A DNA stretch of 64,000 bases from an uncultured Aliarcobacter sp. (GTDB taxonomy: Bacteria > Campylobacterota > Campylobacteria > Campylobacterales > Arcobacteraceae): assembly GCA_963664305.2 (NCBI GenBank), contig CAXXLV010000001.1, positions 672,001 to 736,000 on the forward strand, in the 5' to 3' direction. Within the stretch, counting starts at the first letter, position 1. Each line of letters starts with the position of its first letter. Positions 18,945-61,841 of the stretch are shown piece by piece. Position numbers and translations under genes: made by a program. Below the pieces are notes generated by a model. The model was not told the origin of the DNA. It saw only the letters and a list, made by a program, of their open reading frames with translations, and made no database searches.

Positions 18945-19000
18945 TTGTATTACTTCTATACAAAATTTAATAACTAACTTTTTATTATTTTTTGTATAAT
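18945..19000 (+). promoter_or_regulatory. Dyad operator plus extended -10 of amidoligase operon 1
   Basis: TTGTAT-N7-ATACAA (18945-18963) and TATAAT 18995-19000. Confidence 0.6.
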
Positions 19001-19028
19001 GATTTTAATTCAAAAAAAGGATTAAAAT

Positions 19029-22000
19029 ATGTCTTTAAAAGTAGTAATTTCTCATAAAACTCATTACAAATATGATAGAGCTATTTCATTGTCACCACAC
19101 ATTATAAGATTAAGACCTGCTCCTCATAGTAGAACCCCTATTGAAGCCTATTCATTAAAAATCAAACCTGATAATCATTTTATAAATTGGCAACAAGACC
19201 CTTTTGGAAACTATTTAGCAAGATTAGTTTTCCCAGAAAAAACCAAAGAATTTTGTGTTGATGTAGAAATAATTGCAGACATGATTACAATAAATCCTTT
19301 TGACTTTTTCGTAGAAGATAGTGCTAAAAACTACCCTTTTGAATATAAAAAAGATTTAAAACATGAATTAAAACCATATTTAAAAATAGAAGAAAAAGGC
19401 AAATTACTAAAAGAGTTTGTTAAAAAACTTGATAAAAAAGAAAAACCTATTATCGATTTTTTAGTTGAAGTTAATCAAAAAATCAATCAACACTTAAACT
19501 ATACAGTTAGACTTGAAGCTGGTGTGCAAACTTGTAAAACAACCTTAGAGAAAAAATTAGGAAGTTGTAGAGACTTTGCTTGGCTTTTTGTTCAAGTATT
19601 AAGACATTTAGGACTTGCTGCTCGTTTTGTTTCAGGATATTTAGTTCAATTAACAGCAGATGTTAAATCACTTGATGGACCAAGTGGTCCTGAAGCTGAC
19701 TTTACAGATTTACATGCTTGGACAGAAGTTTATGTTCCAGGTGCAGGATGGATTGGACTTGATAGTACAAGTGGACTTTTTGCAGGAGAAGGACACATAC
19801 CACTTGCTTGTACACCTCACTACAACAGTGCTCATGCAATTGAAGGATTTAGTGATAAATGTGAAACAGAATTTTTCTTTGAAAACACAGTAACAAGAAT
19901 TTTCGAATCACCAAGGGTTACAAAACCATATAAAGAAGAGCAATGGGATGAGATATATAAACTTGGATTTAAAGTTGATGAAGATTTAGTAAAAAATGAT
20001 GTTCGTTTAACTATGGGAGGAGAACCAACTTTCGTATCTATTGATGATATGGAATCTGCTCAATGGAATAGTGAAGCAGATGGACCTCATAAAAGAGAAT
20101 TAGCAAATAATCTATCAAGAAGATTACTTGAAACAAATACAAATGGTGGATTATTACATCATGCTCAAGGGAAATGGTATCCAGGAGAACCCCTACCACG
20201 TTGGCAAACAACTATCTTTTGGAGAAAAGACGGTAAACCTATTTGGAAAAATCCAGATTTATTAGCTGATATGAATAAAAGTTATGCTTACACAACGGCT
20301 GATGCAAAAGAGTTTATTTCAACACTTTCTTTAATTTTAGGTATAAGTGATGAAAATGTAATTCCAGCTTTTGAAGACCCTATTTATTATATTATGAAAG
20401 AAGCAGAACTTCCAATTGATATTGACCCTTTAAAATATGATTTAAAAGACCCACTTGAAAGAAAAACTATTGCTCAAAAATTAACTTATGGATTAAACAA
20501 TGAAGTAGGATACGTACTTCCAGTTAGTTTTGGATTTACAAAATGGATTACTTCAAAATGGGAATTTAGACGTGGACATCTATTTTTAGGAGCAGGAAAC
20601 TCTCCTATTGGACTTAGACTTCCACTTGAATCACTTATTGTTAAACCTCAAGTTGAATTAGAACAAGATTTTGAACCTGATTTATTTGCTTCTTATCCTG
20701 CACTTGGAGATTATATTAGTGCTGTTGAAAAACGTGCTAAGAAAATGAGCAAAAAAACTACTCTTAAAAATAAATATACAGCTTTTGTAAGAACAGCATT
20801 AAGTATTGAAGTAAGAGATAATAAACTTTGTATTTTCCTTCCACCTATTGAAAAAACTGAAGTTTTCTTAGATTTAATTGCTTCAATTGAAGAAACAGCA
20901 AGTAGACTTAATATGGCTGTTATAATTGAAGGATACGAACCACCTCATGATTTAAGAACAGATAGAATCAAAGTTACTCCAGACCCAGGTGTTATTGAAG
21001 TAAATATTCAACCAACAAGTTCATGGAAAGAGTTAAGTGATAATATTTTAAGTCTTTATGAAGATGCTAGATTATGTAGACTTGGAACTGAAAAGTTTAT
21101 GATAGATGGAAGACATACAGGAACAGGAGGTGGAAATCACGTGACAATTGGAGCTATGGAACCAAGTGATTCACCATTACTTAGAAATCCAAATTTACTT
21201 AGAAGTTTAATCACTTTCTGGCAACATCATCCAGGATTATCATACCTATTTAGTGGGGCGTTCATAGGACCAACTTCTCAAGCTCCAAGAGTTGATGAAG
21301 GAAGAATTGAAAATCTATATGAATTAGAAATTGCCTTTTCTCAAATACCTGAAAATGGAGATGTTCCTTATTGGTTAACTGATAGATTATTTAGACATAT
21401 GTTAACAGATATTACAGGAAATACACATAGAAGTGAGTTTTGTATAGATAAACTTTATTCACCTGATAGTGCAAGTGGAAGACTTGGTATTTTAGAATTA
21501 CGTGCTTTTGATATGCCACCACACTCACAAATGGCACTTTTACAAATGTTATTAGTTCGAGCTTTGGTATCTTGTTTTTGGAAAAGACCATATAAACACA
21601 ATCTTATTCGTTGGGGAACAAGACTTCATGATAAATTCTTACTTGAACACTATGTAAAAGAAGATTTAAGAAGTGTAGTTGAATATCTAAATGATGAAGG
21701 ATATGAGTTTAAACTTGATTGGTTTGACCCATTCTTTGAATTTAGATTCCCATTATATGGAATGACAACTATTGGTGGAATGCATGTTGAAATTAGAGCT
21801 GCTATTGAGCCTTGGCATGTTTTAGGAGAAGAATCTGGAAGTCAAGGAACAGCAAGATACGTTGATTCTTCACTTGAAAGATTACAAATCAAAATCCAAG
21901 ATTTTAATGAAGAGAGATATGTAATTACTTGTAATGGAGTTCAAGTTCCTCTTACAAAAACAAATGTTGAAGGTGAATATGTAAGTGGTATTAGATATAA

Positions 22001-22394
22001 AGCTTGGCAACCTTGGTCAGCACTACATCCAACTATTAAAGTTGATACACCTTTAACTTTTGATATAATAGATAAATGGAATACAAGATCTGTTGGCGGA
22101 TTTAACTATTTTGTTTCTCATCCTGGTGGAAGAAGTTATGATTCTTTCCCTGTAAATTCTTATGAAGCTGAATCAAGAAGAATAAACAGATATTGGGATT
22201 TTAACCATTCTCAAGGGGAAGTAACTCCTATGGAAGCAAAAATCACAGGTGAAACAAACTCTGTTTTTGCAGTTGAAGCATCAAGAGTTATGACAAGTAG
22301 AACAGGAAGTAAAAAATTATACTTCCATGAAATGCCAAAAAATAAAGAGTATCCTCATACATTAGATTTAAGACAAAGGTGGATGAAAAATTAG
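19029..22394 (+). CDS. Transglutaminase-like domain fused to DUF2126 putative amidoligase
   Basis: GSCRD, DLHAW.E, W.GLD triad; TMGGEPTF, VTPDPGVIEVN, GTGGGNH, ELRAF. Confidence 0.9.
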   Translation: MSLKVVISHKTHYKYDRAISLSPHIIRLRPAPHSRTPIEAYSLKIKPDNHFINWQQDPFGNYLARLVFPEKTKEFCVDVEIIADMITINPFDFFVEDSAKNYPFEYKKDLKHELKPYLKIEEKGKLLKEFVKKLDKKEKPIIDFLVEVNQKINQHLNYTVRLEAGVQTCKTTLEKKLGSCRDFAWLFVQVLRHLGLAARFVSGYLVQLTADVKSLDGPSGPEADFTDLHAWTEVYVPGAGWIGLDSTSGLFAGEGHIPLACTPHYNSAHAIEGFSDKCETEFFFENTVTRIFESPRVTKPYKEEQWDEIYKLGFKVDEDLVKNDVRLTMGGEPTFVSIDDMESAQWNSEADGPHKRELANNLSRRLLETNTNGGLLHHAQGKWYPGEPLPRWQTTIFWRKDGKPIWKNPDLLADMNKSYAYTTADAKEFISTLSLILGISDENVIPAFEDPIYYIMKEAELPIDIDPLKYDLKDPLERKTIAQKLTYGLNNEVGYVLPVSFGFTKWITSKWEFRRGHLFLGAGNSPIGLRLPLESLIVKPQVELEQDFEPDLFASYPALGDYISAVEKRAKKMSKKTTLKNKYTAFVRTALSIEVRDNKLCIFLPPIEKTEVFLDLIASIEETASRLNMAVIIEGYEPPHDLRTDRIKVTPDPGVIEVNIQPTSSWKELSDNILSLYEDARLCRLGTEKFMIDGRHTGTGGGNHVTIGAMEPSDSPLLRNPNLLRSLITFWQHHPGLSYLFSGAFIGPTSQAPRVDEGRIENLYELEIAFSQIPENGDVPYWLTDRLFRHMLTDITGNTHRSEFCIDKLYSPDSASGRLGILELRAFDMPPHSQMALLQMLLVRALVSCFWKRPYKHNLIRWGTRLHDKFLLEHYVKEDLRSVVEYLNDEGYEFKLDWFDPFFEFRFPLYGMTTIGGMHVEIRAAIEPWHVLGEESGSQGTARYVDSSLERLQIKIQDFNEERYVITCNGVQVPLTKTNVEGEYVSGIRYKAWQPWSALHPTIKVDTPLTFDIIDKWNTRSVGGFNYFVSHPGGRSYDSFPVNSYEAESRRINRYWDFNHSQGEVTPMEAKITGETNSVFAVEASRVMTSRTGSKKLYFHEMPKNKEYPHTLDLRQRWMKN

Positions 22395-24884
22395 ATGTCA
22401 ATTTTTGATAGTTGTAGGTTAGAATCATCATTTGATGAAATGTTTGATAACGAATGTAATATTAGACCTCACTGGAAAGATATTATAGCTGGACTTGAAA
22501 ATGCGGGAATCAAACAATTAGAACAAAAGCAACTAGAAATTGATTGGCGACTTGAAGATAATGGTGTTACATACAATATCTACAATGACCCTGAAGGAAA
22601 CAATAGAAGATGGAATCTTGACCCTATTCCTTTAGTTATAACTTCACAAGAATGGGAAGAAGTTTCTAAAGGTTTAAAACAAAGAGCCAAACTTCTAAAT
22701 CTAATTTTTAAAGATTTATATACTGAGCAAAAACTTATAAAAGAAGGAATTATTCCTGCTGAAATAGTTTTTGGTCATAAAAGTTTTATTCCAGAAGTTT
22801 TTAACTTTAAAAATAAAGATTATTACTCTCTAAGATTTTATGCAAGTGATATAAGTAGAGGTCCAGATGGTAAATTTTGGGTTATAAATGATAGAACTCA
22901 ATCTCCATCAGGTCTTGGATATGCAATAGAAAATCGTCTTACAATGAACTCTATTTCAAATGATTTATATCCAAATGTTGAGATAAAGAAAATGGCTAAA
23001 TTTATAGAAGGTTATAAAAATATGCTCAAATCTTTATCACCTTCAAATCAAGAAAATCCTTTAATCGCATTTTTAACTCCAGGTCCTTTAAATGAGACCT
23101 ATTTTGAACACTCTTATCTTAGTTCTTATTTAGATTTAACATTAGTTCAAGGTGAAGATTTACTTGTAAAAAATAATCACCTTTGGCTAAAAAGTTTAAA
23201 AGGCTTAAGACGTGTTGACACTTTAATAAGAAGAGTTGATGCACAATATTGTGACCCTCTTGAACTAAAAAATGATTCTCATTTAGGTGTTGCAGGTCTT
23301 GTAAATGTTGTTAGAGAAGATAACTTATCTATGATTAATCCAATTGGAGTTGGAATACTTGAGAATATTGGATTAAATCCTTTTATGAAAAATATTGCAA
23401 AATTTTTATTAGATGAAGAATTAATTCTTCCTCAAATAGCTACTTGGTGGTGTGGACAAAAAAAAGAACTGGATTTTGTATTAGAAAATCTAAAAAATTT
23501 AATTGTAAAAAAGATTGATAGAACTGACAATATTGAAGTCTATTTTGCAAATAAATTTGATGAACAACAATTATTAGAGTTAAGTGAAAAAATCAAAAAA
23601 AATCCACACTATTATGTTGGTCAAGAGATAATTGATTTTTCAACAACACCTTCATATTCAAAAGGAAAAATCGAACCAAGAAATACTGTAATTAGAGCTT
23701 TTTCATATTTAGATGAAGATGACTATCAAGTTTTACAAGGTGGATTAATCCGTGTTTCACCATCAAAAGATTCATTAGTTGTTTCAAATCAAAAAGGTGG
23801 AGCTAGTAAAGATTTATGGATTTTAGGAAAAGATGAAGAGTTTATTGGAAACAATATCTTTAAAAATAGAGCTTTTTTTGATTCTAGACTTGAAAACATC
23901 TCTACAAAAAGAGCTGAAAATCTATTTTGGATGGGAAGATATTTAAGTAGAGCCATTACAACAGCAAGAATGATTCGTTTTAATCTAAAATCTATGTTAA
24001 ATATCAACAGATATGATGATAATACTAACTCTAAACAAACAACAAGAATATTAAATACAGCATTGACTCACCTAACGATGTGTTATCCTGGCTTTTTAGA
24101 TGAGAAGTTAAAACAACCTCTTGCTGAAATTATTTCACTTATAAAAGATAAAAATAGAGTAGGAAGTCTATCTTTTTCACTTAGCCTTCTTTCAAATCTA
24201 AATGCAAGTGTAAAAAATCTTCTTACAATGGAAGCATGGAGAATTTATGAAAAAATGCAAAAAGAGTGGAATAACTATAATAAAAGAGAAGTTTTATCAT
24301 ATAAAGACCATATAAATGAATTAGATAGACTTCTTATTTATCTAATGGCTTATAAAGAGTTGATTGACGAAAGTATTTTTAAAGAACAAGGTTTAATTCT
24401 TTATGATATAGGATGTAAACTAGAGATTTCACAACTTTTAATATCTAAATTAAGGTCTTTACTTACTTTAAAACTTGATAAGCTTTTGGAATATGATGTT
24501 TTAGATTCTATGCTTAACTCTTATGAAAGTTATAACTCATATAGAGCCTATTATAAATCATCTTTAGATTTGAAAAATGTATTAGATTTTTTACTTTTTA
24601 ATACAAAATACCCAAAATCATTGATTTATATAATCACTCAATTATTAGAAGATTTAAAAGAATTACCAAAAAATGGTCATGCTTCTAGATTAAGTAATTT
24701 TGAAGAACCAGTATTTAAAGCATTTTCTATGATAACACTTACTAATTCAGATAAACTTTTAGAGATAGAAGAAGATGAATTTATATATAAAGAATTAGAA
24801 AATTTTCTTTCTATACTTTCTGATTTATTAAGTAAAACATCTGAAGAATTAACAAAAACATATTTTTCACATAACAACGAGTAA
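22395..24884 (+). CDS. Circularly permuted type 2 ATP-grasp protein fused to alpha-E domain
   Basis: LDPIP, DRTQSPSGLGY, TPGP.NETYFEH, RRVD, GG.SKD.W, ENLFWMGRY. Confidence 0.9.
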   Translation: MSIFDSCRLESSFDEMFDNECNIRPHWKDIIAGLENAGIKQLEQKQLEIDWRLEDNGVTYNIYNDPEGNNRRWNLDPIPLVITSQEWEEVSKGLKQRAKLLNLIFKDLYTEQKLIKEGIIPAEIVFGHKSFIPEVFNFKNKDYYSLRFYASDISRGPDGKFWVINDRTQSPSGLGYAIENRLTMNSISNDLYPNVEIKKMAKFIEGYKNMLKSLSPSNQENPLIAFLTPGPLNETYFEHSYLSSYLDLTLVQGEDLLVKNNHLWLKSLKGLRRVDTLIRRVDAQYCDPLELKNDSHLGVAGLVNVVREDNLSMINPIGVGILENIGLNPFMKNIAKFLLDEELILPQIATWWCGQKKELDFVLENLKNLIVKKIDRTDNIEVYFANKFDEQQLLELSEKIKKNPHYYVGQEIIDFSTTPSYSKGKIEPRNTVIRAFSYLDEDDYQVLQGGLIRVSPSKDSLVVSNQKGGASKDLWILGKDEEFIGNNIFKNRAFFDSRLENISTKRAENLFWMGRYLSRAITTARMIRFNLKSMLNINRYDDNTNSKQTTRILNTALTHLTMCYPGFLDEKLKQPLAEIISLIKDKNRVGSLSFSLSLLSNLNASVKNLLTMEAWRIYEKMQKEWNNYNKREVLSYKDHINELDRLLIYLMAYKELIDESIFKEQGLILYDIGCKLEISQLLISKLRSLLTLKLDKLLEYDVLDSMLNSYESYNSYRAYYKSSLDLKNVLDFLLFNTKYPKSLIYIITQLLEDLKELPKNGHASRLSNFEEPVFKAFSMITLTNSDKLLEIEEDEFIYKELENFLSILSDLLSKTSEELTKTYFSHNNE

Positions 24885-24886
24885 TT

Positions 24887-25780
24887 ATGATTTATGAAAT
24901 TTATCACGAAACAAAATTTGATTATGCATCACTTGTAACATTTAGCCATAATATTGCTAGATTAAAACCAAAAAATTTACCAACTCAAAAACTACTAGAG
25001 TATTCATTGGAAATTGACCCTACTCCATATGAAACTTCGGAATTTATTGATTATTTTGAAAATACAAACAATTTTATGTTAGTTCGAGAAGCTCATAAAA
25101 CTTTAAAAGTAATTGCAAAATCGAAAGTTGAAAGAATTGAAAGCGAAATAAATAAAGAAATTGAAGCTTTAAAAGATATCAATATTACAGTTAAAGAAAC
25201 TAGAGAAAGATTAAACAAATACTACAAAGACGATGTTCTTGCTAAACTTTTTTTATTTGAAACTGAATCTATTCCTACTCCATCTGCTCAGATTAAAGAG
25301 TATATATTAGAATCTTTTACTGATGAAAAAAAACTATTTGATGCTACTTATGAATTTATGGGAAGAATTTTTAATGATTTTGATTTCGTATCAGGTTTTA
25401 CAGATATTACAACTCCTATTGAAGTAGTGTTTAAAGAGAAAAAAGGTGTATGTCAAGATTTTGCTCAATTTGCAATTTCTGCTTTAAGAAGTATTGGAAT
25501 TCCTACTCGATATGTAAGTGGGTATATTCAAACTATTCAAGAAGAAGGAAAAGAAAAACTTTTTGGAGCTGATGCATCACATGCTTGGTTTTCTATTTAT
25601 ATTCCAACTTTTGGTTGGGCAGATTTTGATCCAACAAACAATAAAATTCCAAATGAAGAATATGTAATTTTAGGATATGGACGAGATTATTTAGATATTT
25701 CACCTCTAAAAGGTGTTGTTCAAAGTAGTGGAGGAAGTACTTTAAAAGTTAAAGTAAATGTTGAAGCTATAAAAGAGTAG
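24887..25780 (+). CDS. Transglutaminase family protein
   Basis: GVCQDFA, RYVSGY, ASHAW, FDPTN, GRDY.D..P. Confidence 0.92.
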   Translation: MIYEIYHETKFDYASLVTFSHNIARLKPKNLPTQKLLEYSLEIDPTPYETSEFIDYFENTNNFMLVREAHKTLKVIAKSKVERIESEINKEIEALKDINITVKETRERLNKYYKDDVLAKLFLFETESIPTPSAQIKEYILESFTDEKKLFDATYEFMGRIFNDFDFVSGFTDITTPIEVVFKEKKGVCQDFAQFAISALRSIGIPTRYVSGYIQTIQEEGKEKLFGADASHAWFSIYIPTFGWADFDPTNNKIPNEEYVILGYGRDYLDISPLKGVVQSSGGSTLKVKVNVEAIKE

Positions 25781-25788
25781 AGGAAAGC

Positions 25789-27951: not shown

Positions 27952-28896
27952 TTAACCAATTCTTGCTATTCTAAAAGCAACAGCATGTTCATAAATAAGT
28001 GAATTACTATAAAAACAAGTAATCATTCCATTACATGGTGCTAAAAATTGATGTATAACTTCACCTTCCAAAGAATGAACTATTTCACCAATTACTTGGT
28101 CTTTTGAAACATAATTACCTGCTAATTCTTTTGATATAAAGATACCACTATTTGGAGATTTTACAACATTGATTGTATTTCTATCCATTATTGTAGATTC
28201 ATAGCCATTGAAAATGTGATAATTTATAATTTTGCTTTTATCCATAAATCTGATAATTGCTTGATTTATTTGACTTGCTGTTTTTTTATCAACTTGATTA
28301 TCACTTGGGCACATTATAGAAAAAGCCTTTGTTCCCCAAAGTTGCCAGTTATACTGTAAAGTTACAGTATCAATTGATTTCATTGTTCTATGGTGAATTA
28401 ATTTAAAACCAAATCTTTTTGCTGCTAATAAATCTTCATATCCACTTTTATAAAGTTTTATATATGGTACACAAGTTGCAGGGTCTGGTCTTCTCTCAAG
28501 TATAATTCCATAGTCATATCCACTTATTGCATCAAAAACTTTTTTTGCAATTCTTTGTGTTGTTTCACCAAACTCATATCCTGGAAACATCATATTTATA
28601 TCTGTATTATCTAAAGGCCAGAATCGTTTTCCAATATTTAGAGCATAATGATTAATTGATGGAATAATTAATACATCACCTTTTATTTTTTCTTCTTCAA
28701 TTTTATTTTTAAAAAAATCAACTAAAGTAGAAGCACAATATAAAGGCAGTATAGAATCACCTTCCATTGCACCAACAATTGCAACTTTTGGAGCTTTTGG
28801 ATTTGAACCTTTAAATAAATAACCTTCAACAACCAAAGGTGCTCGACTTAATGATTCTATTCGTAAGATTTCAATTTTTTCCACTTTTTTCTCCAA
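27952..28896 (-). CDS. M14 (AstE/AspA-like) peptidase homologue with degenerate zinc site
   Basis: Paralogue of the neighbouring gene; MEGDS for IHGDE, ILER for IDIH; C-terminal biotinyl-like domain. Confidence 0.75.
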   Translation of the reverse strand: MEKKVEKIEILRIESLSRAPLVVEGYLFKGSNPKAPKVAIVGAMEGDSILPLYCASTLVDFFKNKIEEEKIKGDVLIIPSINHYALNIGKRFWPLDNTDINMMFPGYEFGETTQRIAKKVFDAISGYDYGIILERRPDPATCVPYIKLYKSGYEDLLAAKRFGFKLIHHRTMKSIDTVTLQYNWQLWGTKAFSIMCPSDNQVDKKTASQINQAIIRFMDKSKIINYHIFNGYESTIMDRNTINVVKSPNSGIFISKELAGNYVSKDQVIGEIVHSLEGEVIHQFLAPCNGMITCFYSNSLIYEHAVAFRIARIG

Positions 28897-29827
28897 AAAT
28901 TCTAGCTATTAAAGACCCTTCATAAACAACTGGATATTCTCTTAATGTAAATAAAATCCCATCATTAGGAGCAATTAATGTAGATAAAATTGTTCCGCTT
29001 AAAGGGTCAACAATATCTCCTATTTTATTTCCTTCTTTTATAATTGCACAGTGATCAAGTGTTGGTACAAACAAACCACTTTTTGGTGCATTTAAATAGA
29101 ACACATCTCCTACTTCTGAGCTAAAAGGAACTCTAACATCAAAGTTTTCTTCACACTCGATAATTCCTTCTTTTTTCATAAGATTTAAAATACCAATAAG
29201 AAGTTGATTTCCATACTCTTTTGTAAGTCTCATTCCAACACCCATTTCAACAACAAGTGTTTTAGTTCCCATTGAATTTAAGGTATGAGAGAAAGTTGCT
29301 TCAAGAACTGTTACTGCATCATGAATCCAAATAAAATCACAATTTAGCTCTTTTGCTAAAGGAAGAGTATCTTTTGAGAACTCTTTATTTATTCTAATTT
29401 GTGGAATTTCTCTTAAGAAAATATTACTAGAGTGAATATCTATAGCAATATCACTTCCTTTTACATCATAAGCTAACGCATGAACAACTTGACCTGGAAG
29501 AAATTCATCTGCACTTCCAGGGAATGTTCTATTTAAATCAACATCATATAGAGGAAAACCTCTTGTAATTGTATCTACTCCTAAAGAATTAACAGCAGGA
29601 TATAAATCAACAATTCCTTTTAGTTTTTCACTATTCTTGTTTAACCAATCAGCCAAAAGATAAATAACCAATTGTCCTTCTAATTCATCACCATGAATAC
29701 CACTTACAATTGAAATTCTTTTAGCTTTTTTATTATTATCTATTGTTGCCGATTCAAATCTAGCTCGTTTTATAGCTAGTTTTTCACCAACAGGTAAATT
29801 TGATGTAAAGATTTCTTCTATTACCAT
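28871..29827 (-). CDS. M14 succinylglutamate desuccinylase/aspartoacylase family metallopeptidase
   Basis: HGDE, DLNR.FPG, DIHS, VEMG. Confidence 0.9.
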   Translation of the reverse strand: MVIEEIFTSNLPVGEKLAIKRARFESATIDNNKKAKRISIVSGIHGDELEGQLVIYLLADWLNKNSEKLKGIVDLYPAVNSLGVDTITRGFPLYDVDLNRTFPGSADEFLPGQVVHALAYDVKGSDIAIDIHSSNIFLREIPQIRINKEFSKDTLPLAKELNCDFIWIHDAVTVLEATFSHTLNSMGTKTLVVEMGVGMRLTKEYGNQLLIGILNLMKKEGIIECEENFDVRVPFSSEVGDVFYLNAPKSGLFVPTLDHCAIIKEGNKIGDIVDPLSGTILSTLIAPNDGILFTLREYPVVYEGSLIARIFGEKSGKN

Positions 29828-30492
29828 TATTCCTCAACTATTATTTTCTTAATTTTATTGTTTACAGAATTCAAAATCGTTTCATATGATTCTTTTTCAT
29901 CATGAGGTTTGAATTTTGCATCGGGAGCTAATCTTATTACAATTTTATCTATTTCTTCCATAATAACTAGTGATAATTCTTTATCTTTTTCTATTCGTAA
30001 ATGAAAATCAACCTTTTCAACCAATTTTCCAAGTCTAATAAAATAATCACTATTATTTCTCTTTTGTCGTCTTGTTAATTCTCCCCAAATTTCGCTGATT
30101 AAAGACAGAACATAATCTATATATCTACAATCTATACTAAAACTTGAATGACTAGAATGTTTTAGTAAATCAGCAAGTTCTATTACAGAACCAAATGCTT
30201 CTGTATCCATATTAGACCGGCTTATAATTGCATTTTCTTTTGCAAAAGAGATTAAACTATGTACATTTGCACTATGATTTCCAAACACTGCTACATTTAA
30301 AAATTCTTTAGCATTTTCATATTCTAAATCAACACCTAATTTTTTATAAAATGTTTTACCAGAATCTTTATCAATATCAATTATTCTATCAAAATGATAA
30401 ACAGCTTCAATCAAAGTGGCTTCAATTCTTTCTAAATATCTTCCAAACCAATAAAGATTATTTGCTACATTTGCTGTTAATAATTGCTCCAT
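29827..30492 (-). CDS. Alpha-E domain protein
   Basis: A.NLYW.GRYLER, ENA...R, F.RLG..VE..D. Confidence 0.88.
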   Translation of the reverse strand: MEQLLTANVANNLYWFGRYLERIEATLIEAVYHFDRIIDIDKDSGKTFYKKLGVDLEYENAKEFLNVAVFGNHSANVHSLISFAKENAIISRSNMDTEAFGSVIELADLLKHSSHSSFSIDCRYIDYVLSLISEIWGELTRRQKRNNSDYFIRLGKLVEKVDFHLRIEKDKELSLVIMEEIDKIVIRLAPDAKFKPHDEKESYETILNSVNNKIKKIIVEE

Positions 30493-30493
30493 C

Positions 30494-31858
30494 TTAATCC
30501 TCCATTACCCAAGTATCTTTAAATCCACCACCTTGAGATGAATTAACTAAATAATTTCCTGCTTCCATCGCATATCTTGTTAATCCACATTGCCAAACTT
30601 TTGGTTCTTCTGCCATTACAACATAAGCTCTAAAATCAGCTTTTCTTGGAACAATTTCATCATTAATGAAACACTCTTCATCATAAAATTCTATTAATTC
30701 TTGAGCTATAAATCTTCTAGGATTTGCATTTATAATAGTCTTTAAATCTTCTAATTGGATTTTTGACATTGCATGTCCAAACATAACTCCATAACCACCA
30801 GCTTCTGCAACATCTTTGATAACTAATTTATGCATATTTTCAAATACATATTTTTTATCATTTTCAAAATATGGTAAATATGTTGGTGCATTTCTAAGAA
30901 TTGGTTCTTCACCTAAATAATATTCAATCATTTTTGGAACAAAATAGTAAATACCTTTATCATCAGCAATACCGTTTCCAGGAGCATTCATAATTGCTAC
31001 ATTTCCAGCTAAATATGCTTCCATAATTCCTGGAACACCTATCAAACTCTCTTCATTAAAGAATTTTGGGTCTAAGAATTCATCATCTAATCTTCTATAA
31101 ACAGCCCCTACTTTGATTAGTTGCCCATTATAATTTTTGAAATATAAAATCTTATCTTTTACAACAACTTCATCATTTCTTACAAGTTGTGCACCAATTT
31201 TTCTAGCTAAATAAGCATGCTCATAATAAGCAGAATTAAATCTACCAGGAGTTAAAACTACATTTATTCCTCCACAACTAACATAATTCATTGCTTCTTC
31301 TAAAATTGATGGATAACCTTTTATAGGTTTTATCTTTAGTTTTTCAAAAAAATCTGGATAGATTTTTCTATAAGTATCACGAACAGATAAAGGATAACTA
31401 GCCCCACTTGGAACTCTTAAGTTATCTTCTAAAATAACCCAATCATCTGTAATTGTATCTTTTACTAAATCTATACCATTTATATGTGTTCGGATTTTTT
31501 TATTTGGAGAGAAACCTTCAAGCTCTTTTAAATAGCCTTTGGCTTGAAAAATAAATTCTTCTGGAATAACTTTGTCTTTGATAATTTTTTTATCTGTATA
31601 TAAATCTTCTAAAAAAAGATTTAAAGCCTTAATTCTTTGAGATAGCCCTTTGTCCATCTTATCAAACTCTTTTGAATCTATTATTCTTGGAATAACATCA
31701 AAAGGAAGTGATCTTTCAATAAAATTTCCATCTTTATAAAGGTTGAAATTTACCGCGAACTTATCCATATATTTTTGGAATTCATCAATCTTCAATCTAT
31801 CTTGCTTAGAGAATATATCCCAAAACAATTCACTCTTTTCATTTTTTGTATCTAGCAA
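30494..31858 (-). CDS. Circularly permuted type 2 ATP-grasp protein
   Basis: PFDVIPR, LEDNLRVPSG.SY, TPG.FNSAYYEH, YRRLDD, VNSSQGGG.KDTW. Confidence 0.93.
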   Translation of the reverse strand: MLDTKNEKSELFWDIFSKQDRLKIDEFQKYMDKFAVNFNLYKDGNFIERSLPFDVIPRIIDSKEFDKMDKGLSQRIKALNLFLEDLYTDKKIIKDKVIPEEFIFQAKGYLKELEGFSPNKKIRTHINGIDLVKDTITDDWVILEDNLRVPSGASYPLSVRDTYRKIYPDFFEKLKIKPIKGYPSILEEAMNYVSCGGINVVLTPGRFNSAYYEHAYLARKIGAQLVRNDEVVVKDKILYFKNYNGQLIKVGAVYRRLDDEFLDPKFFNEESLIGVPGIMEAYLAGNVAIMNAPGNGIADDKGIYYFVPKMIEYYLGEEPILRNAPTYLPYFENDKKYVFENMHKLVIKDVAEAGGYGVMFGHAMSKIQLEDLKTIINANPRRFIAQELIEFYDEECFINDEIVPRKADFRAYVVMAEEPKVWQCGLTRYAMEAGNYLVNSSQGGGFKDTWVMED

Positions 31859-31937
31859 CTCACACCTCCTAAACTAATAAATTCTAGTCTTTATTATCTG
31901 AGAAATTACTAAATAATTACTTTCTTTTTTCTTTTTA

Positions 31938-31955
31938 TTGTATATTAAATAAACA
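31938..31955 (-). promoter_or_regulatory. Dyad operator upstream of amidoligase operon 2
   Basis: Minus strand TGTTT-ATTTAAT-ATACAA. Confidence 0.45.
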
Positions 31956-31982: not shown

Positions 31983-32018
31983 AAAAAAAGGGAGAAGATG
32001 TATAATCTTCTCCCTTTT
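31983..32018 (-). terminator. Intrinsic terminator downstream of typA
   Basis: AAAAGGGAGAAGAT-loop-ATCTTCTCCCTTTT with A-tract on the + strand. Confidence 0.8.
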
Positions 32019-32122: not shown

Positions 32123-33937
32123 TTAAGCGAACTTCTCTTTTTTTGCAGTTCTTTTTCTAACTGTTGGGTCTAATTCTCTTTTTCTTACTCTTACAGATAA
32201 AGGAGTTACTTCAACTAATTCATCATCTTCAATCCACTCTAAAGCATTTTCTAAAGACATTGTTCTTGGTGGAACTAATTTAATAGCTTCATCAGCACCT
32301 GAAGATCTAACGTTTGATTGAGCTTTTCCTTTAATAGGATTTACATCTAAATCGTTATCTTTTGCGTGTTGACCAATAACCATACCAACATATACTTTAT
32401 CTTGAGGTTTAATGAACATTACACCTCTATCTTGTAAGTTGAAAATTGAATAACCTAAAGCTTCTCCATTTTCCATAGATACTAAAGCTCCATATTTTCT
32501 AGATTCAACTGTTCCTGAATATGGTCTGAATTCTAAGAATGAGTGATTCATAACACCCTCACCTTTTGTTTCAGTTAAGAATTCTGTTCTAATACCGATT
32601 AATCCTCTTGCTGGAATTTCAAACTCAAGTCTTGTATAACCTTCACCCATTGGTACCATGTTAGTCATAGTAGCTTTTCTTTTTCCAAGTTTTTCAATAA
32701 TTGCACCTGAAAATTCATCTGGTAAGTCAATTACTAAATGTTCAAATGGCTCCATTTTAACACCATTTTCTTCTCTAATAATAACTTCTGGTCTTCCTAT
32801 ACAGAACTCAAAACCTTCTCTTCTCATATTTTCAGCAAGAATAGTAATTTGAAGCTCACCTCTTCCGTTAACTTTAAATTTACCTTCACCAATTTGCTCA
32901 TAACCCATAGCAATATTAGTGTTCATTTCTGCTTTTAATCTCTCATCAATTTTGTTTGAAGTAACAAATTTACCTTCTGTTCCTGCTAATGGAGAATCAT
33001 TAACTGCAAAAGTAACAGATAAAGTTGGCTCTTCAATATGCATTGGGTCAAGTGGCATTGGATTTGCTGGGTCACATAAAGAATCTCCAACATCAATTGT
33101 TTCAAAACCAGCAACAGCACAAATATCACCTGCACCAGCAGTTTTAATATCTATTCTTTCTAAACCTTTAAATCCAATAAGTTTAGAAACTCTTCCTTTT
33201 ACTTTTTCTCCATCTGCTTTACATAATAAAACTGTTTCACCTTGAGAAATTGTTCCATTAAAAATTCTAGCGATTCCGATTTTTCCAATGAAGTTATCAT
33301 AATCTAAAGTAAATACTTGAAGTTGTAATCCATTTTCATCATCACCTTGTGGTTTTGGAACTTCTTTTAAAATAGTTTCAAATAATGGTTTTAAATCCAT
33401 ATTTCCATCATTTGCATCATATCTAGCATATCCATCTCTTGCTGCTGCATAAATAACTGGGAATTCTAATTGCTCTTCGTTTGCATCCATTTGTGCGAAT
33501 AAGTCAAATACCTCATCAACAACTCTATCTGGCTCAGCTGCTGGTTTATCAATTTTATTTACAACAACGATTGGTCTGTGTCCTAAAGATAATGCTTTTT
33601 TAACAACGAATTTTGTTTGTGGCATTACTCCTTCTTGTGCATCAACAAGAAGTAAAACAGAGTCAACCATTTTTAAAACCCTCTCAACTTCTCCACCAAA
33701 ATCGGCGTGTCCTGGAGTGTCAATAATGTTAATTCTTACACCTTCGTAATCAATAGCTGTATTTTTAGAAAGGATTGTAATCCCTCTTTCTTTTTCGATA
33801 GCATTACTATCCATAACTCTTTCATCAACATTTTGATGTGAAGAAAAAGTTCCTGATTGTTTTAGTAATTCATCAACTAGTGTTGTTTTACCGTGGTCAA
33901 CGTGTGCAATTACTGCGATATTTCTAATGTCTCTCAT
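32123..33937 (-). CDS. typA: Translational GTPase TypA/BipA
   Basis: [41 protein letters not shown]. Confidence 0.98.
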
Positions 33938-49211: not shown

Positions 49212-49438
49212 CTTTTCACTCTTTTTGTTTATTTTTTATTCACATTAGTAAAAGTTCGATATAATCGTATTTTCATAGTATAATTTTATTTAAAAGAAAA
49301 AATTTATTCACTACTTATTCACTATGTGTATAACTTTAAATTTTTCACATTTATGAGCACATTAGTTCTATTTGAAGCTCTTTTATAAAAAATTTAGATA
49401 TAATATCTAGTAATTACAATTAAAGAGTTTATAAATAG
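49212..49438. other. Replication origin sub-region oriC1 (DnaA box cluster)
   Basis: TTATTCACA 49236, TTATTCACT 49304 and 49315, TGTGTATAA 49325, TTTTCACA 49342. Confidence 0.75.
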
Positions 49439-52006: not shown

Positions 52007-54349
<2,343 letters not shown>

Positions 54350-55901: not shown

Positions 55902-55911
55902 GAATTTAACC

Positions 55912-56526: not shown

Positions 56527-56540
56527 ATGATTTTTTTTGC

Positions 56541-56710: not shown

Positions 56711-56767
56711 TTGCAATTATAACTTAGCAATCTTTAATTTATACTAAATTTTTATAAAAAGAGTTAT

Positions 56768-57175
56768 ATGACATATTTAATGCTGTTTTTTTCTGCTTTT
56801 ATATCAGCAACACTTTTTCCTTTAGGAAGTGAAGCTCTATTAATTTATGATATTAAAGAGGGATATAATATATATTTATTACTATTTTTTGCCACTTTAG
56901 GAAATAGTTTAGGTTCAATTTTAAATTATTATCTTGGTTTAAAAGGTGAAGAGTATTTAATAGAAAAAAAGCTTTTAAATGAAAAATATATAGATATTTC
57001 AAAAAAATATTTTGATAAATATGGTTTTATTACAATTTTATTTTCATGGTTACCAATTATTGGTGATCCAATAACTTTTGTGGCTGGAATATTAAAATAT
57101 GATTTTAAAAAGTTTGTGATTTTAGTAGTTATTTCAAAGTTTTCTAGATATTTATTTATAGCTTTAGTAGTTTAA
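56768..57175 (+). CDS. YqaA/DedA family membrane protein
   Basis: SAF.SATL.P.GSE, GNSLGS..NY.LG, SWLP.IGDP. Confidence 0.9.
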   Translation: MTYLMLFFSAFISATLFPLGSEALLIYDIKEGYNIYLLLFFATLGNSLGSILNYYLGLKGEEYLIEKKLLNEKYIDISKKYFDKYGFITILFSWLPIIGDPITFVAGILKYDFKKFVILVVISKFSRYLFIALVV

Positions 57176-57199
57176 AACAAAGGAAAACCTTTGTTTTAA
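57172..57199. terminator. Bidirectional terminator
   Basis: TTAAAACAAAGG-AAAA-CCTTTGTTTTAA. Confidence 0.7.
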
Positions 57200-57201
57200 T
57201 A

Positions 57202-57588
57202 TTAGAAATCAGATACGTTAGCGTGAGCTTCTCTTGTAGCCATTGTGATATCGGCTCTAAATTTTTGCTCTTTAACTTCTGGAAGCATTAAACCTTTTGC
57301 TTTATGTTCTCTAATTTTATATTCACCTTTTTCATTCCCACTTAAATAGTAAGAATTGAAGTCAACTGTGTAAGGCATATCCCAAACAATTGCACCTTCA
57401 GTTGGACATGCTTCTGCACATCTTGGAGAATCAGCATGGTCAACACACTCAACACATGATTCAGGTTTTACATATAAAATCCCATCTTTTGGATTTTTTT
57501 CATTTCCATCTGGTAATATAGCTGCAACTGGACATTCAGAAGCACAGGCCTCACAGCTTATACATTCTTCTGTAATTTTAACTGCCAT
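57202..57588 (-). CDS. 2[4Fe-4S] ferredoxin, nif-associated FdxN-like, with C-terminal extension
   Basis: CxxCxxCxxxCP and CxxC-x8-CxxxCP. Confidence 0.88.
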   Translation of the reverse strand: MAVKITEECISCEACASECPVAAILPDGNEKNPKDGILYVKPESCVECVDHADSPRCAEACPTEGAIVWDMPYTVDFNSYYLSGNEKGEYKIREHKAKGLMLPEVKEQKFRADITMATREAHANVSDF

Positions 57589-57624
57589 TTTCTATCCTTT
57601 TTTATAAAAATATAAAAATTACGT

Positions 57625-57640
57625 TGCAAAACCTATTCCA
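57625..57640 (-). promoter_or_regulatory. Sigma54 (-24/-12) promoter of the ferredoxin
   Basis: Minus strand TGGAATAGGTTTTGCA (GG-N10-GC). Confidence 0.75.
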
Positions 57641-57648
57641 TTCTAAAA

Positions 57649-58905
57649 TTAATTAGCTATTTTTTTGAATAAAATCTCTTTTGTTGACTCTTGAATATCA
57701 TTATTTTCTTTATAAACTAATTCAATATCTTTTTCTTTGTCTATATACTCTTTTGTAATAATACATTTTTCTAAATTATCTTCAGAAGGAATAATGTATT
57801 GTAAAGGAAGCATTATATTTTCTATAATACCTCTAAGTCCCCTTGCTCCAACATCTTTTTCATGTGCAATTTCAGCAATTCTTTCAAGTGCTTCATCAGT
57901 GAAAACAAGCTCAACACCATCAAGTTCAAATAAAATTTCATACTGTTTTGTAATTGCATTTTTAGGCTCTTTTAAAACACGTATTAAATCTTCTTTTGAT
58001 AATTTATTAAGTTCAGCAATAACGGGAATTCTTCCTATAAATTCAGGAATTAGACCAAAAGATATTAACTCTTTAGCTTCAATTGCTTTTTTATTTTCTT
58101 GAATCTCTTCTTTTTTCAAGAATCCCATTTTAGGAGCTTTTTTACTTTTTTTGTGGCTATCATCTTCTCTTAAACCTACAAAGGCTCCCCCACAAATAAA
58201 TAAAACATGAGTTGTGTCAAAAAGAATTGTTTCAGCACTAGAGTTTTTTCTACTTCCTTTAACTGGAACATAAACTTCAGCACCTTCAAGGATTTTTAAA
58301 AGTCCTTGTTGAACTCCTTCTCCTGAAACATCTCTTCCACTTGTTGAACTTTCACTTTTATTTGCAATTTTGTCTATTTCATCGATATAAACAATACCTC
58401 TTTTTGCTTTTTCTACATCAAAATCAGCTGCAGCTAAAAGTCTTGAAAGTATTGATTCAACATCTTCTCCAACATAACCAGCTTCAGTTAAAGCAGTTGC
58501 ATCAGCAACTGCAAATGGAACATCCATGATTCTTGCTAAACTTTTTGCAAGTAGAGTTTTCCCAGAACCTGTAGGTCCTATAAGCATAATATTTGATTTT
58601 TCAATCTCAACATTTTTAACTATTGGTTTATCAATTCTTTTATAGTGATTATATAAAGCAACGGCAAGAACTTTTTTTGCTTCAAGTTGCCCAATTACAT
58701 AATCATCAAGATGTTCTTTTATTTTAACTGGAACACTAAGTCCTTTTTGGAACTCTTTTTTATTATCTTTTATAAGTTCTTTTTCTAGAACTTTTGCACA
58801 CATAGTTACACATTCATCACAAATGTGAGCCTCTTCACTAGAGAATATTTTTTTTACTTCTGTTATCTCTTTTCCACAGAAATCGCAATTATGTATTTCA
58901 CTCAT
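57649..58905 (-). CDS. clpX: ATP-dependent Clp protease ATP-binding subunit ClpX (nif-associated paralogue)
   Basis: CxxC..CxxC zinc domain, GPTGSGKT, TEAGYVGEDVE, RDVSGEGVQQ, MGF loop, GARGLR. Confidence 0.92.
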   Translation of the reverse strand: MSEIHNCDFCGKEITEVKKIFSSEEAHICDECVTMCAKVLEKELIKDNKKEFQKGLSVPVKIKEHLDDYVIGQLEAKKVLAVALYNHYKRIDKPIVKNVEIEKSNIMLIGPTGSGKTLLAKSLARIMDVPFAVADATALTEAGYVGEDVESILSRLLAAADFDVEKAKRGIVYIDEIDKIANKSESSTSGRDVSGEGVQQGLLKILEGAEVYVPVKGSRKNSSAETILFDTTHVLFICGGAFVGLREDDSHKKSKKAPKMGFLKKEEIQENKKAIEAKELISFGLIPEFIGRIPVIAELNKLSKEDLIRVLKEPKNAITKQYEILFELDGVELVFTDEALERIAEIAHEKDVGARGLRGIIENIMLPLQYIIPSEDNLEKCIITKEYIDKEKDIELVYKENNDIQESTKEILFKKIAN

Positions 58906-59722
58906 GGTTTTTTATAAACTCATTAATGCTCATATTTAATGCTGTTAAATTATGAGTTTTAATAAATTTATCCTCTTTTTTAGTTAATTCATCTTTATTA
59001 AATAAAACAATCCCACTTTCTAGACCAATAGTAACTTCATTAGTAACCATTCTAAAAGTATCCCTTGAAAAATCTACACCTAAAAACAAATACTCTTTAT
59101 TTTTTCTATACTCTTTTAAAATTTCAGGCATTGCATACCCACCCATAGCTTCAGTTAACCAATCAACAAAATCTGCATCACTAATGATGAAATTCATTTC
59201 AGGTTTTGTAGAACCCATTGGTTTAAATAAAATAGGTAAATCTAAAGTTAATTTATCTTTTTCAATTCTTGTGTATGTTTTTGTTTCCATATCATAAGAA
59301 TAAATTAGATATCTGTCCCAATCAGCTGTTATTCTTGATACACCTGTAATTAAGAAGTGATTACAGTCACTGTAGATTTTTTGTAAGCTATCATCCATGT
59401 TTGTATCGATTACATATTTTGGTTTTAAAGTTGCTAACCATTTATATGTATCTGGTATTTCATACTCTTTTGAAGAGTAGATAAAATTTGTCATTTGAAC
59501 AATGAATTCTCTACCTTTTCTTTGTTCTAAACTCATAGCAGCTCGGCTATACTCATACATAAGTCTTGGACTCATGGCTCTTCCATTATTCAAAGCTAAA
59601 ATCATTGAATCGCTATCATAAGGAAGAGTTGACCCATCCTTACATTTTGTATCTTGAAATATTCCCATTCCTAAGAACGGAATAAGTTCCCCACTTTTTA
59701 TCTTTTCAACTATACTATCCAT
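58898..59722 (-). CDS. SIR2-like domain protein in nif cluster
   Basis: IPFLG.G, DTN.D, KP.GS, .SD.D, LFLG. Confidence 0.75.
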   Translation of the reverse strand: MDSIVEKIKSGELIPFLGMGIFQDTKCKDGSTLPYDSDSMILALNNGRAMSPRLMYEYSRAAMSLEQRKGREFIVQMTNFIYSSKEYEIPDTYKWLATLKPKYVIDTNMDDSLQKIYSDCNHFLITGVSRITADWDRYLIYSYDMETKTYTRIEKDKLTLDLPILFKPMGSTKPEMNFIISDADFVDWLTEAMGGYAMPEILKEYRKNKEYLFLGVDFSRDTFRMVTNEVTIGLESGIVLFNKDELTKKEDKFIKTHNLTALNMSINEFIKNHE

Positions 59723-60239
59723 GACAACCTGCTCCTGTGTATGACTGATAGACTTTGTTTAGTTCAACCCTTATTCTTTCGATGTTTAAAGGCTTTTCTA
59801 AATCATTAGGCATATCAATATGATAAACAGCACCATCTTTACCAATTAAAAAAAGTGCCTTTGTTAATTTATTTTCCAAAGTACCACTTACAATTTTTGT
59901 TCCGTACATCTCTGCAAATTCTTCATTTACGTCAAATATAGGAATTATTTTTTTAAATTGGTAAGGAATGTCGAATTCCTTGTTAAAAATAATATAAGTA
60001 AATATATCAACTTTTGCATCATTCATGAATTCATCAAACATAATAATTTCTTTTGAGAATTCATCAAAAGATGGAAAAGACATGAAAATTTGTATATTTC
60101 TATTTGGGCTAGCTCTTTTTATTTCAATTTTATTTTTATTTAAATCAATTGCTTCAAAATTTTCAGCCATATAACCAATATCTATAAAATCATCAGTTAA
60201 TTCCATTTCTTCATTTTTGTATGTTATTTTAGATTTCAT
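59715..60239 (-). CDS. Thiol peroxidase (Tpx)-like redoxin lacking the catalytic Cys
   Basis: G..A.NF, SFPS, FA..YG..I..G.L...L..A.F.I..DG.V. Confidence 0.65.
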
Positions 60240-61758
60240 ATTTTTTTATTTTATACCCAATTTGTCTAAGAGTTATTCCTAACTCATCTGCTGCTCTTGA
60301 ATGATTGTAATCATTGTTTTCAAGCGCCTCAATAATTGCTTCTTTTTCCATTTCATCTAAAGTCATAGTTCTTTTTGAAATAGGTTTATATTCACTTTTT
60401 AATTTTTGGTCATTAAGTGCTGGAAGAAGTAGTAACATATCAAATTTGCTAATACCATCTTCGTTACCCATTAAAACAATTCTTTCAATTGTATTTTCAA
60501 GTTCTCTTACATTGCCCGGCCACGGGTAACTACAGAGTGCATCCATTGCTTCATCTGTAATGGTTACTATTTTTTTATGGTTTTTCATAGAACGTTCTAA
60601 AAAGAAGTTAACAAGTTGTTTTATGTCATCACCTCTTTCTCTAAGTGGTGGTAAATCAATAGGAATTACATTTAATCTATAATATAAATCCTCTCTAAAT
60701 TTTCCATCTTTTACCATTTGTTCAAGATTTCTATTTGTTGCAGCAACAAGTCTTACATTTACTTTAATTGTTTTACTTCCTCCTACTCGCTCAAACTCTC
60801 TTTCTTGTAAAACCCTAAGAAGTTTTACTTGTGCAGAAGCTGATATATCGCCTATTTCATCTAAAAACAGAGTTCCACCATCAGCAAGTTCAAATCTTCC
60901 TTTTCTAGTCTCTCTAGCATCTGTAAATGCGCCTTTTTCATGACCAAAAAGTTCACTCTCAAGTAAAGTATCTGTAATTGCAGCACAGTTTAATTTAATA
61001 AATGGTTCATCTTTTCTATTACTTCTTTTGTGAATAGCAGCTGCAACTAACTCTTTTCCAGTTCCAGTTTCACCCCGAACTAATACAGTTACATCTGATT
61101 GTGCAATTCTTTGAATTACTTTGAAAACTTGTTGCATTTTTGGACTATCTCCAATAATATCTCCAAAGTTATGTACTTTTGAATCCCATTCCATTTTATA
61201 GTAAAGTTTTAACTCTTGAAGTCTTTCTTTCTCTTTTTTATTTAATTGAAATGAATAGATTGTTTGAGCAAAAATTGAACTAACAATAGTCAAAATTCTA
61301 ACCGTATCATCAAGTTGAATTTCTGCTGTTTTTGTTATAACTGTTCCTAAAACACCTATTGCTTCATTGTCTATCATTAATGGAACTGCTACATAAGATT
61401 TTCCATTAAAATCTCTTTTCCCTGATTTATTTAAAAAAAGAGAATTATTATGAATATTTTCAACAACAACTGGTTCTTTAGATTCTATTACCATTCCAGT
61501 TACACCTTCACCAACTTTATAAGTTGATAAGGTTTTTTGGAATTTTGATAATTCAATCGAAGCAAAAACATTTAGAACATCGTCCTCTAAAATATGTACA
61601 ACACAATTGTCTAAATTCAAACTATTTTTTAATACCCTCATTGATTTTTCTAATGAAGTTTGTAAATCGTAGTGATTTGAAATAATAGATGATATTTCAT
61701 AGAGTGTTGTTAGCTCTCTAATAGTTAGACAGCCCATACAGGCAGATTTATCAAACAT
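60229..61758 (-). CDS. nifA: Nif-specific sigma54 activator NifA
   Basis: GAF domain, [49 protein letters not shown]; next to nifT. Confidence 0.88.
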
Positions 61759-61786
61759 TATGCCTCCTTTTTATTCTTATTGTCTA

Positions 61787-61841
61787 ATTATAATGATTTT
61801 TTTGGTCAATAATGAATGACCATTTGTATATAAGATAGACA
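61787..61841 (-). promoter_or_regulatory. nifA promoter: dyad operator and -10
   Basis: Minus strand TGTCT-ATCTTAT-ATACAA (61841-61824) and TATAAT (61792-61787). Confidence 0.6.

Follow-up and report, generated by a model that had tools for sequence, protein, structure and literature searches.

In a 64,000-nucleotide stretch of the genome of an uncultured Aliarcobacter sp. (the window; G000:C1:672001-736000, in a genome, G000, of 2.78 Mb and 27% G+C), the promoters of nifA and of two operons coding for amidoligase-type proteins (operons 1 and 2) carry the same 17-bp dyad. The comparisons set out below make it very probable that this dyad, TGTWT-N7-ATACA, serves as the operator for a global regulon of nitrogen assimilation made up of sigma-70 promoters that lack a -35 element, with nifA and both amidoligase operons among its members. 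The factor that reads it is probably a putative NtrC-like protein of 250 aa encoded next to glnD. The dyad therefore supplies both a map of the regulon and a specific candidate protein. In the literature that could be covered, outside of which most subscription journals fall, we found no account of a global nitrogen regulator, of this operator or of the 250-aa protein in the Campylobacterota.

An earlier note on this DNA, made from the letters alone, had claimed one dyad at the three promoters, and all three copies are found where it placed them (we give them without strand). The operon 1 dyad (18946..18962) is a perfect palindrome, TGTAT-N7-ATACA, which extends to TTGTAT-N7-ATACAA over 18945-18963 and has a position weight matrix (PWM) score of 14.4. 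Those of operon 2 (31939..31955; PWM score 17.5) and nifA (61825..61841; PWM score 16.6) read, oriented to their genes, TGTTT-N7-ATACA and TGTCT-N7-ATACA. The full site letters are TGTATTACTTCTATACAA at 18946-18963 (+), TGTTTATTTAATATACAA at 31938-31955 (-) and TGTCTATCTTATATACAA at 61824-61841 (-). Also as claimed, 32 nt separate ATACA from a TATAAT hexamer both in operon 1 (18995..19000, +, with no -35 match) and in nifA (61787..61792, -). Operon 2 has no -10 element at that distance and -10-like hexamers are found at 40 and 52 nt, again in agreement with the note; the candidate is GATAAT (31893..31898, -), 40 nt past the dyad, which corresponds to a spacing class with one extra helical turn. 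A strict pattern fitted post hoc to these sites gives five strand-matches in the window vs 0.32 expected, and none of 100 shuffles reached five, with one palindrome counted twice and one match (52104) lying inside gyrB codons. Because the pattern was fitted to these same sites, the window statistic alone proves little.

The genome as a whole offers an independent test. A crude map of open reading frames (ORFs), amounting to 93% of the genome, provided 1290 upstream regions. In them, the strict pattern was found 10 times (0.31 expected) and TGTWT-N7-ATACA 15 times (0.61 expected, with a maximum of 2 in 200 dinucleotide shuffles), i.e., the motif is more frequent than the AT-rich background would give. 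Over the 2.78 Mb there are 18 strand-matches to the strict pattern, and six of the nine perfect palindromes TGTAT-N7-ATACA fall in intergenic DNA, which makes up 6.9% of the genome. Twelve distinct strict sites are located outside the window, three within coding sequence and nine in promoter regions. These nine promoters belong to glnA, gdhA, amtB1-glnK, amtB2-glnK, a nasA-like nitrate reductase gene, two paralogous quinohemoprotein amine dehydrogenase operons, hcp and a gene for a DUF808 protein. Seven of the out-of-window sites were classed as intergenic, and the presence among them of glnA and both amtB-glnK promoters has a chance of ca. 1e-7, given the 1290 upstream regions. When one mismatch was allowed or the PWM was used, the promoters of an nrtA-like ABC transporter, a major facilitator superfamily (MFS) transporter, nirB, eutB, urtA (which opens the urt cluster adjoining urease), a dCache-CheW protein and the 250-aa ORF preceding glnD were added. 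The earlier note had proposed a scan for enrichment upstream of nitrogen genes, and its expectation was borne out by the dyads before glnA, both amtB-glnK operons, nrtA, nasA, nirB and urtA. By its predicted gene content, the set of dyad-bearing genes is a regulon for nitrogen assimilation and nitrogen scavenging.

The position of the dyad relative to the promoter is also far from random. We oriented 19 sites to their genes and called a -10 element when at least five of the six bases matched TATAAT, with A2 and T6 fixed. Such a hexamer is found 30-32 nt past ATACA at 11 of the 19 sites (operon 1, nifA, glnA, eutB, the MFS transporter, nirB, amtB1, amtB2, the 250-aa ORF, the dCache-CheW protein and nasA), for which the binomial probability, with a background of 0.080 for a 3-nt window, is 4e-8. 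Five more (operon 2, hcp, both amine dehydrogenase operons and the DUF808 gene) have it at 40-42 nt, urtA at 52 nt and gdhA at 8 nt; at nrtA, merely a 4/6 hexamer is present, at 32 nt. The classes of ca. 31, 41 and 52 nt are whole helical turns apart and, with the -10 element assumed to occupy positions -12 to -7, the dyads are therefore centered near -52, -62 and -73. A sigma-70 scan with an obligatory -35 hexamer did not pick up the operon 1 promoter, and the promoters have no -35 match; we read that of operon 1 as a predicted activator-dependent promoter without a -35 element. No sigma-54 element of the -24/-12 type (TGG-N8-TTGCW) was found in the three window promoters, while nifH has one. 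By these sequence features, the promoters of the regulon are of the sigma-70 type.

The dyad is conserved in relatives, to a degree that depends on the gene. Upstream of glnA, an exact TGTNT-N7-ANACA stands at the corresponding position in 20 of 29 relatives of the family; in three others one half-site is altered, and six lack the dyad. The conserved copies precede a -10 element of the GATACAAT type by ca. 31 nt. A further 16 genomes gave seven exact copies, four variants (three of them TGGTT-N7-AACCA) and five without a dyad. At nifA, 15 of 16 relatives have TGNNN-N7-ANACA at a distance of 30-32 nt from a downstream TAnnnT hexamer, and here the proximal half-site is indeed the conserved one, as the earlier note had seen at the three window sites, while the distal half can be TGTAT, TGAAT, TGATT, TGCAC or TGGGT. 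For operon 2, one of nine orthologous promoters has the exact dyad and three have one base changed, so that four of nine carry it with at most one change, all directly past the upstream terminator. In the window, this terminator-like hairpin with its T-run (31983..32014, -) is located 3' of typA/bipA (32123-33937; BipA by Pfam) and sets the upstream limit of the operon 2 promoter; a similar hairpin is also present at the orthologous operon 2 loci. Beyond this family but within the order, TGATT-N7-AATCA precedes amtB and glnA in G126, G127 and G069 (in G147 the copy is half-altered), and TGTAT-N7-ATACA precedes both amt genes of G176. The letters of the operator thus vary by lineage at a constant position, with TGTAT-N7-ATACA, TGGTT-N7-AACCA and TGATT-N7-AATCA forms (loci L183, L187 and L188, i.e., the glnA promoters of G012, G022 and G046, and L116-L130). 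A separate observation concerns the amtB leaders of G031, G043 and G010 (L205, L206 and L207), three relatives without the 250-aa regulator. They have no dyad and show a conserved hairpin, tccagcgctgga, directly before the ribosome-binding site. An Rfam scan of this leader gave no family match, and the hairpin may be a different cis-regulatory element.

The candidate regulator (protein P0001, 250 aa; G000 C2:1739740-1740489) is encoded just before glnD, the stop of its ORF overlapping the glnD start, and glnD is the next gene in all 30 family loci. The gene is 3 kb from both amtB-glnK operons; in G001 amtB is its divergent neighbor, and in G007 it is upstream of amtB-glnK. It has its own dyad, 30 nt from a TATAAT. 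Among the 30 promoters of this gene family, seven match the pattern (our genome, four relatives at the same place and two, G037 and G017, in which the match overlaps the -10 region), and four more have degenerate copies at that place. Database profiles (NCBIfam and Pfam) match the protein weakly but coherently to NtrC, HTH_8 and Sigma54_activat, over residues 1-50 of the sigma-54 AAA+ domain and over the NtrC/Fis helix-turn-helix (HTH), where HTH_8 and HTH_50 were detected; against the NtrC equivalog TIGR01818 it scores 29 bits (cut-off, 558.6). A profile built from 12 sequences of the family retrieved Aquifex NtrC1 (E = 1.6e-11, with a match that spans the lid and the Walker A region), as well as VpsR, ZraR and Fis. 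The AlphaFold model (mean predicted local distance difference test score, pLDDT, 88.3) has Brucella NtrX as its top structural match, with NtrC1, FlrC and PspF among the best that follow. Walker A is conserved, the AAA+ core is cut to ca. 110 residues, and no receiver domain, GAFTGA loop or conserved Walker B acidic pair was found in the protein. The predicted complex with GlnK scored 0.00, a value that has no bearing on binding. Homologues are present in 49 of 60 genomes of the family and, of 13 Campylobacterales families sampled, in 11; in two large families of the order none was found (0/64 and 0/83 genomes). The recognition helix reads NRITLRKK in genomes with TGTAT-type operators, including G176, and NRNTLRKK in four with the TGATT type. 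This covariation is consistent with the protein being the one that contacts the dyad, although it is not proof. We infer the binding of the 250-aa protein to the dyad from this combination of gene order, domain content and distribution.

The distribution of the protein was compared with that of the glnA dyad in 45 relatives. Both are present in 32 and both absent in nine, while two have just the dyad and two just the regulator (Fisher P = 3e-6). Informative absences are G010 and G031, which have kept amtB, glnK and glnD, lack the regulator and have no dyad at glnA or amtB. Counts of the perfect palindrome per genome separate regulator-positive from regulator-negative genomes just in part: there is no excess over the control pattern in G010, G031, G014 and G043, and there is one in the g9-genus genomes, G023 and G021.

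Several results weigh against our interpretation. With regard to the regulator, the Fisher value overstates the case because the relatives are not independent. G023 has a perfect dyad before nifA and no regulator, also by profile search, and G021 and G004, drafts that are 93% and 91% complete, have the glnA dyad and no detected regulator; conversely, G001 and G059 have the regulator and no glnA dyad. Three small genomes of the g9 genus without the regulator contain 10-11 perfect palindromes vs 3-6 for the control pattern. Elsewhere in the order, in families other than this one, the homologue of the 250-aa gene adjoins fabD and not nitrogen genes. The recognition helix NRITLRKK is also that of the TGGTT-type genomes, i.e., the I/N split follows phylogeny and leaves the TGGTT-N7-AACCA variant unexplained. 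As for the operator, the looser pattern TGTNT-N7-ANACA shows no enrichment in the window (4 matches vs 2.42 expected), and both the PWM and the spacing classes derive in part from the very sites they describe. Finally, operon 1 has orthologues in nine of 60 relatives, and its dyad with the 31-32-nt spacing is kept in just two of eight readable orthologous promoters; operon 1 would therefore be a peripheral, lineage-specific member of the regulon.

Part of this list could be accommodated if the dyad were a real nitrogen operator bound by another factor and the 250-aa protein did something else. The dyads or palindrome excess of G023 and the g9 genomes in the absence of a detectable homologue, the fabD linkage elsewhere in the order and the partial confounding of the co-occurrence by shared descent all favor this possibility, and yet we consider it unlikely. 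No other candidate emerged, and the AraC-type and OmpR-type regulators found near genes of the regulon look local. The 250-aa protein, on the other hand, has an NtrC-type HTH, belongs to a glnD operon in 30 of 30 loci and has a dyad of its own, and its gene is missing from G010 and G031, the genomes that keep amtB and glnD and have no dyads.

As to the sign of regulation, a dyad located well upstream of a -35-less promoter at phased distances is the typical layout of an activator. The earlier note had proposed a sigma-70-dependent nitrogen activator in control of nifA and of the amidoligase systems, and this idea gains support from the nitrogen gene content, the conservation and the TATAAT-type promoters without a sigma-54 element; we infer the remaining parts, namely that the factor activates and that it responds to nitrogen. 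At gdhA, the dyad (L073:3757-3773; G000 C2:1665757-1665773) ends 8 nt before the -10 hexamer TAAAAT and overlaps the core promoter, an arrangement suggestive of repressed glutamate dehydrogenase expression when nitrogen is limiting (the real ORF start is probably 19 nt downstream of the initial call). This site indicates that the factor could repress, and it is the argument for a dyad that binds a repressor, with the regulon turned on by de-repression. We regard that as quite improbable for the regulon at large, as 17 of the 19 dyads end at least 30 nt upstream of the -10 element, outside the polymerase footprint, at the helically phased distances of ca. 31, 41 and 52 nt and without a -35 hexamer.

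With an activator, the system would work as follows. A dimeric factor at the dyad would recruit RNA polymerase to sigma-70 promoters, acting from one face of the helix. Under nitrogen limitation, it would switch on both amtB-glnK operons and glnA (ammonium uptake and assimilation), together with the scavenging of nitrate, nitrite, urea, ethanolamine and amines and the two amidoligase operons, and the same factor would repress at gdhA. It would also switch on nifA, and NifA would then drive the sigma-54 nif promoters, in a two-step cascade; the NtrC of Rhodobacter capsulatus also stands above nifA. The signal could reach the receiver-less 250-aa protein via PII, GlnD or a nucleotide. In these diazotrophs, the control of nifA would thereby be placed under a defined upstream signal.

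The closest known relatives of such a system are found around NtrC. The classical NtrC box is TGCACC-N5-GGTGCA, also a 17-bp dyad read by a Fis-type HTH, and the dyad described here could be seen as an AT-rich form of it; the nifA site of one relative has a TGCAC half-site, as in the classical box. The regulon content is also alike, since glnA, amtB-glnK, gdhA, nas/nir/nrt and urt, with nifA downstream, appear in the part of the proteobacterial reconstruction available to us (PMC5343134). In that same part, the NtrC regulons of Proteobacteria were reconstructed with the epsilonproteobacterial genomes left out, orthologues of the target factors being absent from them (PMC5343134). The differences are considerable: here there are no sigma-54 promoters, receiver domain, NtrB partner or GAFTGA, the AAA+ domain is shortened, and the site is located at ca. 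-52 or -62 instead of in a distant enhancer. NtrC in its classical form (NR-I) was in fact discarded as the factor, given that the 250-aa protein matches just the ends of the AAA+ domain and HTH_8, without receiver or GAFTGA, and that the target promoters are of the TATAAT type. NifA is the sole full sigma-54 activator of the genome, which therefore has no classical NtrC.

A nearer comparison is with the NtrC of R. capsulatus, the NtrC of Caulobacter, the NtrX of Brucella and the VpsR of Vibrio, which, according to the portion of the preprint accessible to us, resemble enhancer-binding proteins (EBPs), act at sigma-70 promoters and have no sigma-54 contact loop (bioRxiv 10.1101/2023.06.06.543975). 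With its EBP fold (as modeled), its C-terminal Fis-type HTH and target promoters of the sigma-70 type, the 250-aa protein can be placed by fold, HTH and promoter among these GAFTGA-less, sigma-70-dependent regulators of the NtrC/NtrX type, as a putative activator. It differs in that the known members keep the receiver and a full AAA+ domain and need phosphorylation or cyclic di-GMP, whereas the 250-aa protein has neither a receiver nor a conserved Walker B acidic pair. If true, a receiver-less descendant of NtrC that regulates nitrogen genes together with sigma-70 would add a new design to a much-studied family. We lean, with some hesitation, toward a wider scenario in which the free-living Campylobacterales replaced NtrB-NtrC with a receiver-less, GAFTGA-less and probably ATPase-less mini-NtrC, linked to glnD in the Arcobacteraceae. 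This protein would serve as a phosphorylation-free master regulator of nitrogen at sigma-70 promoters, above NifA and sigma-54, its operator would have diversified into the TGTAT-, TGGTT- and TGATT-N7 forms, and the amidoligase systems would be nitrogen-starvation functions in two distant phyla.

Outside the NtrC family, the resemblance to the GlnR/TnrA boxes of Firmicutes pointed out in the earlier note holds in part. The geometry (17 bp, TGT-N11-ACA) and the position agree: the dyad is centered near -52, as in TnrA-activated promoters, and in Bacillus there is likewise apparent activation from ca. -50 and repression where the site overlaps the promoter. The inner bases do not, as the GlnR/TnrA consensus is TGTNA-N7-TNACA and positions 5 and 13 are T and A, not A and T, in all the strong sites found here. 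Neither is there a fitting MerR-family protein. A MerR-type regulator was rejected after inspection of the two MerR_1 genes of the genome, one coding for HspR (beside a dnaJ-like gene) and the other for a 212-aa protein present in 13 of 60 relatives, and many genomes without this 212-aa protein have the glnA dyad. A regulator of the Firmicute GlnR/TnrA type is, consequently, hardly credible as the factor that binds the dyad. NtcA, of the Crp family, was also discarded: its site is GTA-N8-TAC centered at -41.5, and the equivalent here would be GTA-N9-TAC, of odd length and centered near -52 or -62. Lastly, that the window sites are chance matches in AT-rich promoters, or upstream activator sequences of NifA, is a negligible prospect: the pattern was post hoc, its looser version reached just 4 vs 2.42 in the window and the operon 1 site is present in two of eight orthologues, but chance hardly accounts for the enrichment across the genome, the nitrogen functions of the genes, the constant spacing and the conservation, and NifA sites are TGT-N10-ACA and serve sigma-54 promoters, whereas the spacing here is N11 and the three window promoters have no -24/-12 element.

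The two amidoligase operons have annotations based on Pfam domains. Operon 1 (19029..25780, +) consists of three genes, coding for a transglutaminase with a DUF2126 amidoligase domain (19029-22394, +), a fusion of a circularly permuted ATP-grasp with an alpha-E domain (22395-24884, +) and a transglutaminase-like protein (24887-25780, +). The four genes of operon 2 (27952..31858, -) code for a circularly permuted ATP-grasp protein (30494-31858, -), an alpha-E protein (29827-30492, -) and two deacylase-like proteins of the AstE/AspA type (28871-29827 and 27952-28896, -). A gene cluster of the same kind (ATP-grasp, alpha-E and transglutaminase) is under nitrogen control in Burkholderia cenocepacia H111, where, in the sections of the study at hand, the expression of the DUF404/407-DUF403-transglutaminase cluster was 6- to 9.4-fold down in an ntrC mutant (PMC5491218). 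The difference is that, as far as those sections go, control there involves classical NtrC and sigma-54, and here there are two separate operons with sigma-70-type promoters and the dyad (PMC5491218). In marine metagenomes, domains of the ATP-grasp/alpha-E/transglutaminase type co-vary with urea-metabolism domains, judging from the available part of the report (PMC3597751). The uncharacterized ATP-grasp/alpha-E/transglutaminase/DUF2126 operons would thus gain a nitrogen-starvation setting, in line with the portion of the Burkholderia transcriptome at our disposal (PMC5491218). Divergent from operon 1 is a hemerythrin-like gene (18406-18846) whose likely -10 element, at ca. 71 nt from the dyad, fits none of the spacing classes; we do not claim it as a member of the regulon.

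The nifA gene (60229-61758, -) codes for a protein with GAF, sigma-54 AAA+ and HTH_8 domains (Pfam) and scores 534.0 bits against NCBIfam TIGR01817 (cut-off, 528.85); by this equivalog, the Pfam domains and the nif context, it is a true NifA. It follows nifT/fixU (69 aa; 61845..62054, -), whose stop codon is 3 nt from the nifA dyad, and nifHDK and rpoN are located ca. 8-17 kb upstream of nifA, past the end of the window. The three overlapping genes that come after nifA, for redoxin-like, SIR2_2 and ClpX-like AAA+ zinc finger proteins (57649-60239, -; Pfam), are unusual companions for it, and together with nifA (57649..61758, -) they look like one operon. A sigma-54-type -24/-12 element, TGGAATAGGTTTTGCA, at 57625-57640 (-) precedes a 4Fe-4S ferredoxin gene (57202-57588) by 37 nt, and the nifH promoter has one as well (TGGAAC-N5-ATGCA; L076, ca. 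10451-10466). Both the ferredoxin gene and nifH are probably NifA targets.

Two promoters of the regulon outside the window have additional features. That of hcp contains a perfect FNR-type box, TTGAT-N4-ATCAA (L001:4023-4036; G000 C1:789023-789036), centered near -41.5, with the nitrogen dyad (L001:4042-4058) on one side and the -10 hexamer on the other. This arrangement suggests that hcp answers both to an Fnr/HcpR-like factor and to the nitrogen regulator. The two paralogous amine dehydrogenase operons (alpha subunit, radical-SAM protein and gamma subunit) have in common a promoter module of ca. 40 bp that includes the dyad (L002, ca. 7835-7851, and L004, ca. 6689-6705; G000 C2:1438835 and C2:851689), and one of them is divergent from a gene for an AraC-type regulator.

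The window contains two more matches to the dyad. The fourth strict match (52104..52120, given without strand) is inside gyrB codons and has a GC-rich spacer; similar 17-mers are also present in relatives without the regulator, and we judge it to be a coincidence of the coding sequence and not an operator. A weaker matrix match, TGTTTATTTTTTATTCA (49226-49242; score 14.0), precedes dnaA by 196 nt, in the gap that separates this gene from ruvC, and is probably due to chance. The presence of dnaA, dnaN and gyrB indicates that the window contains the origin region of the chromosome.

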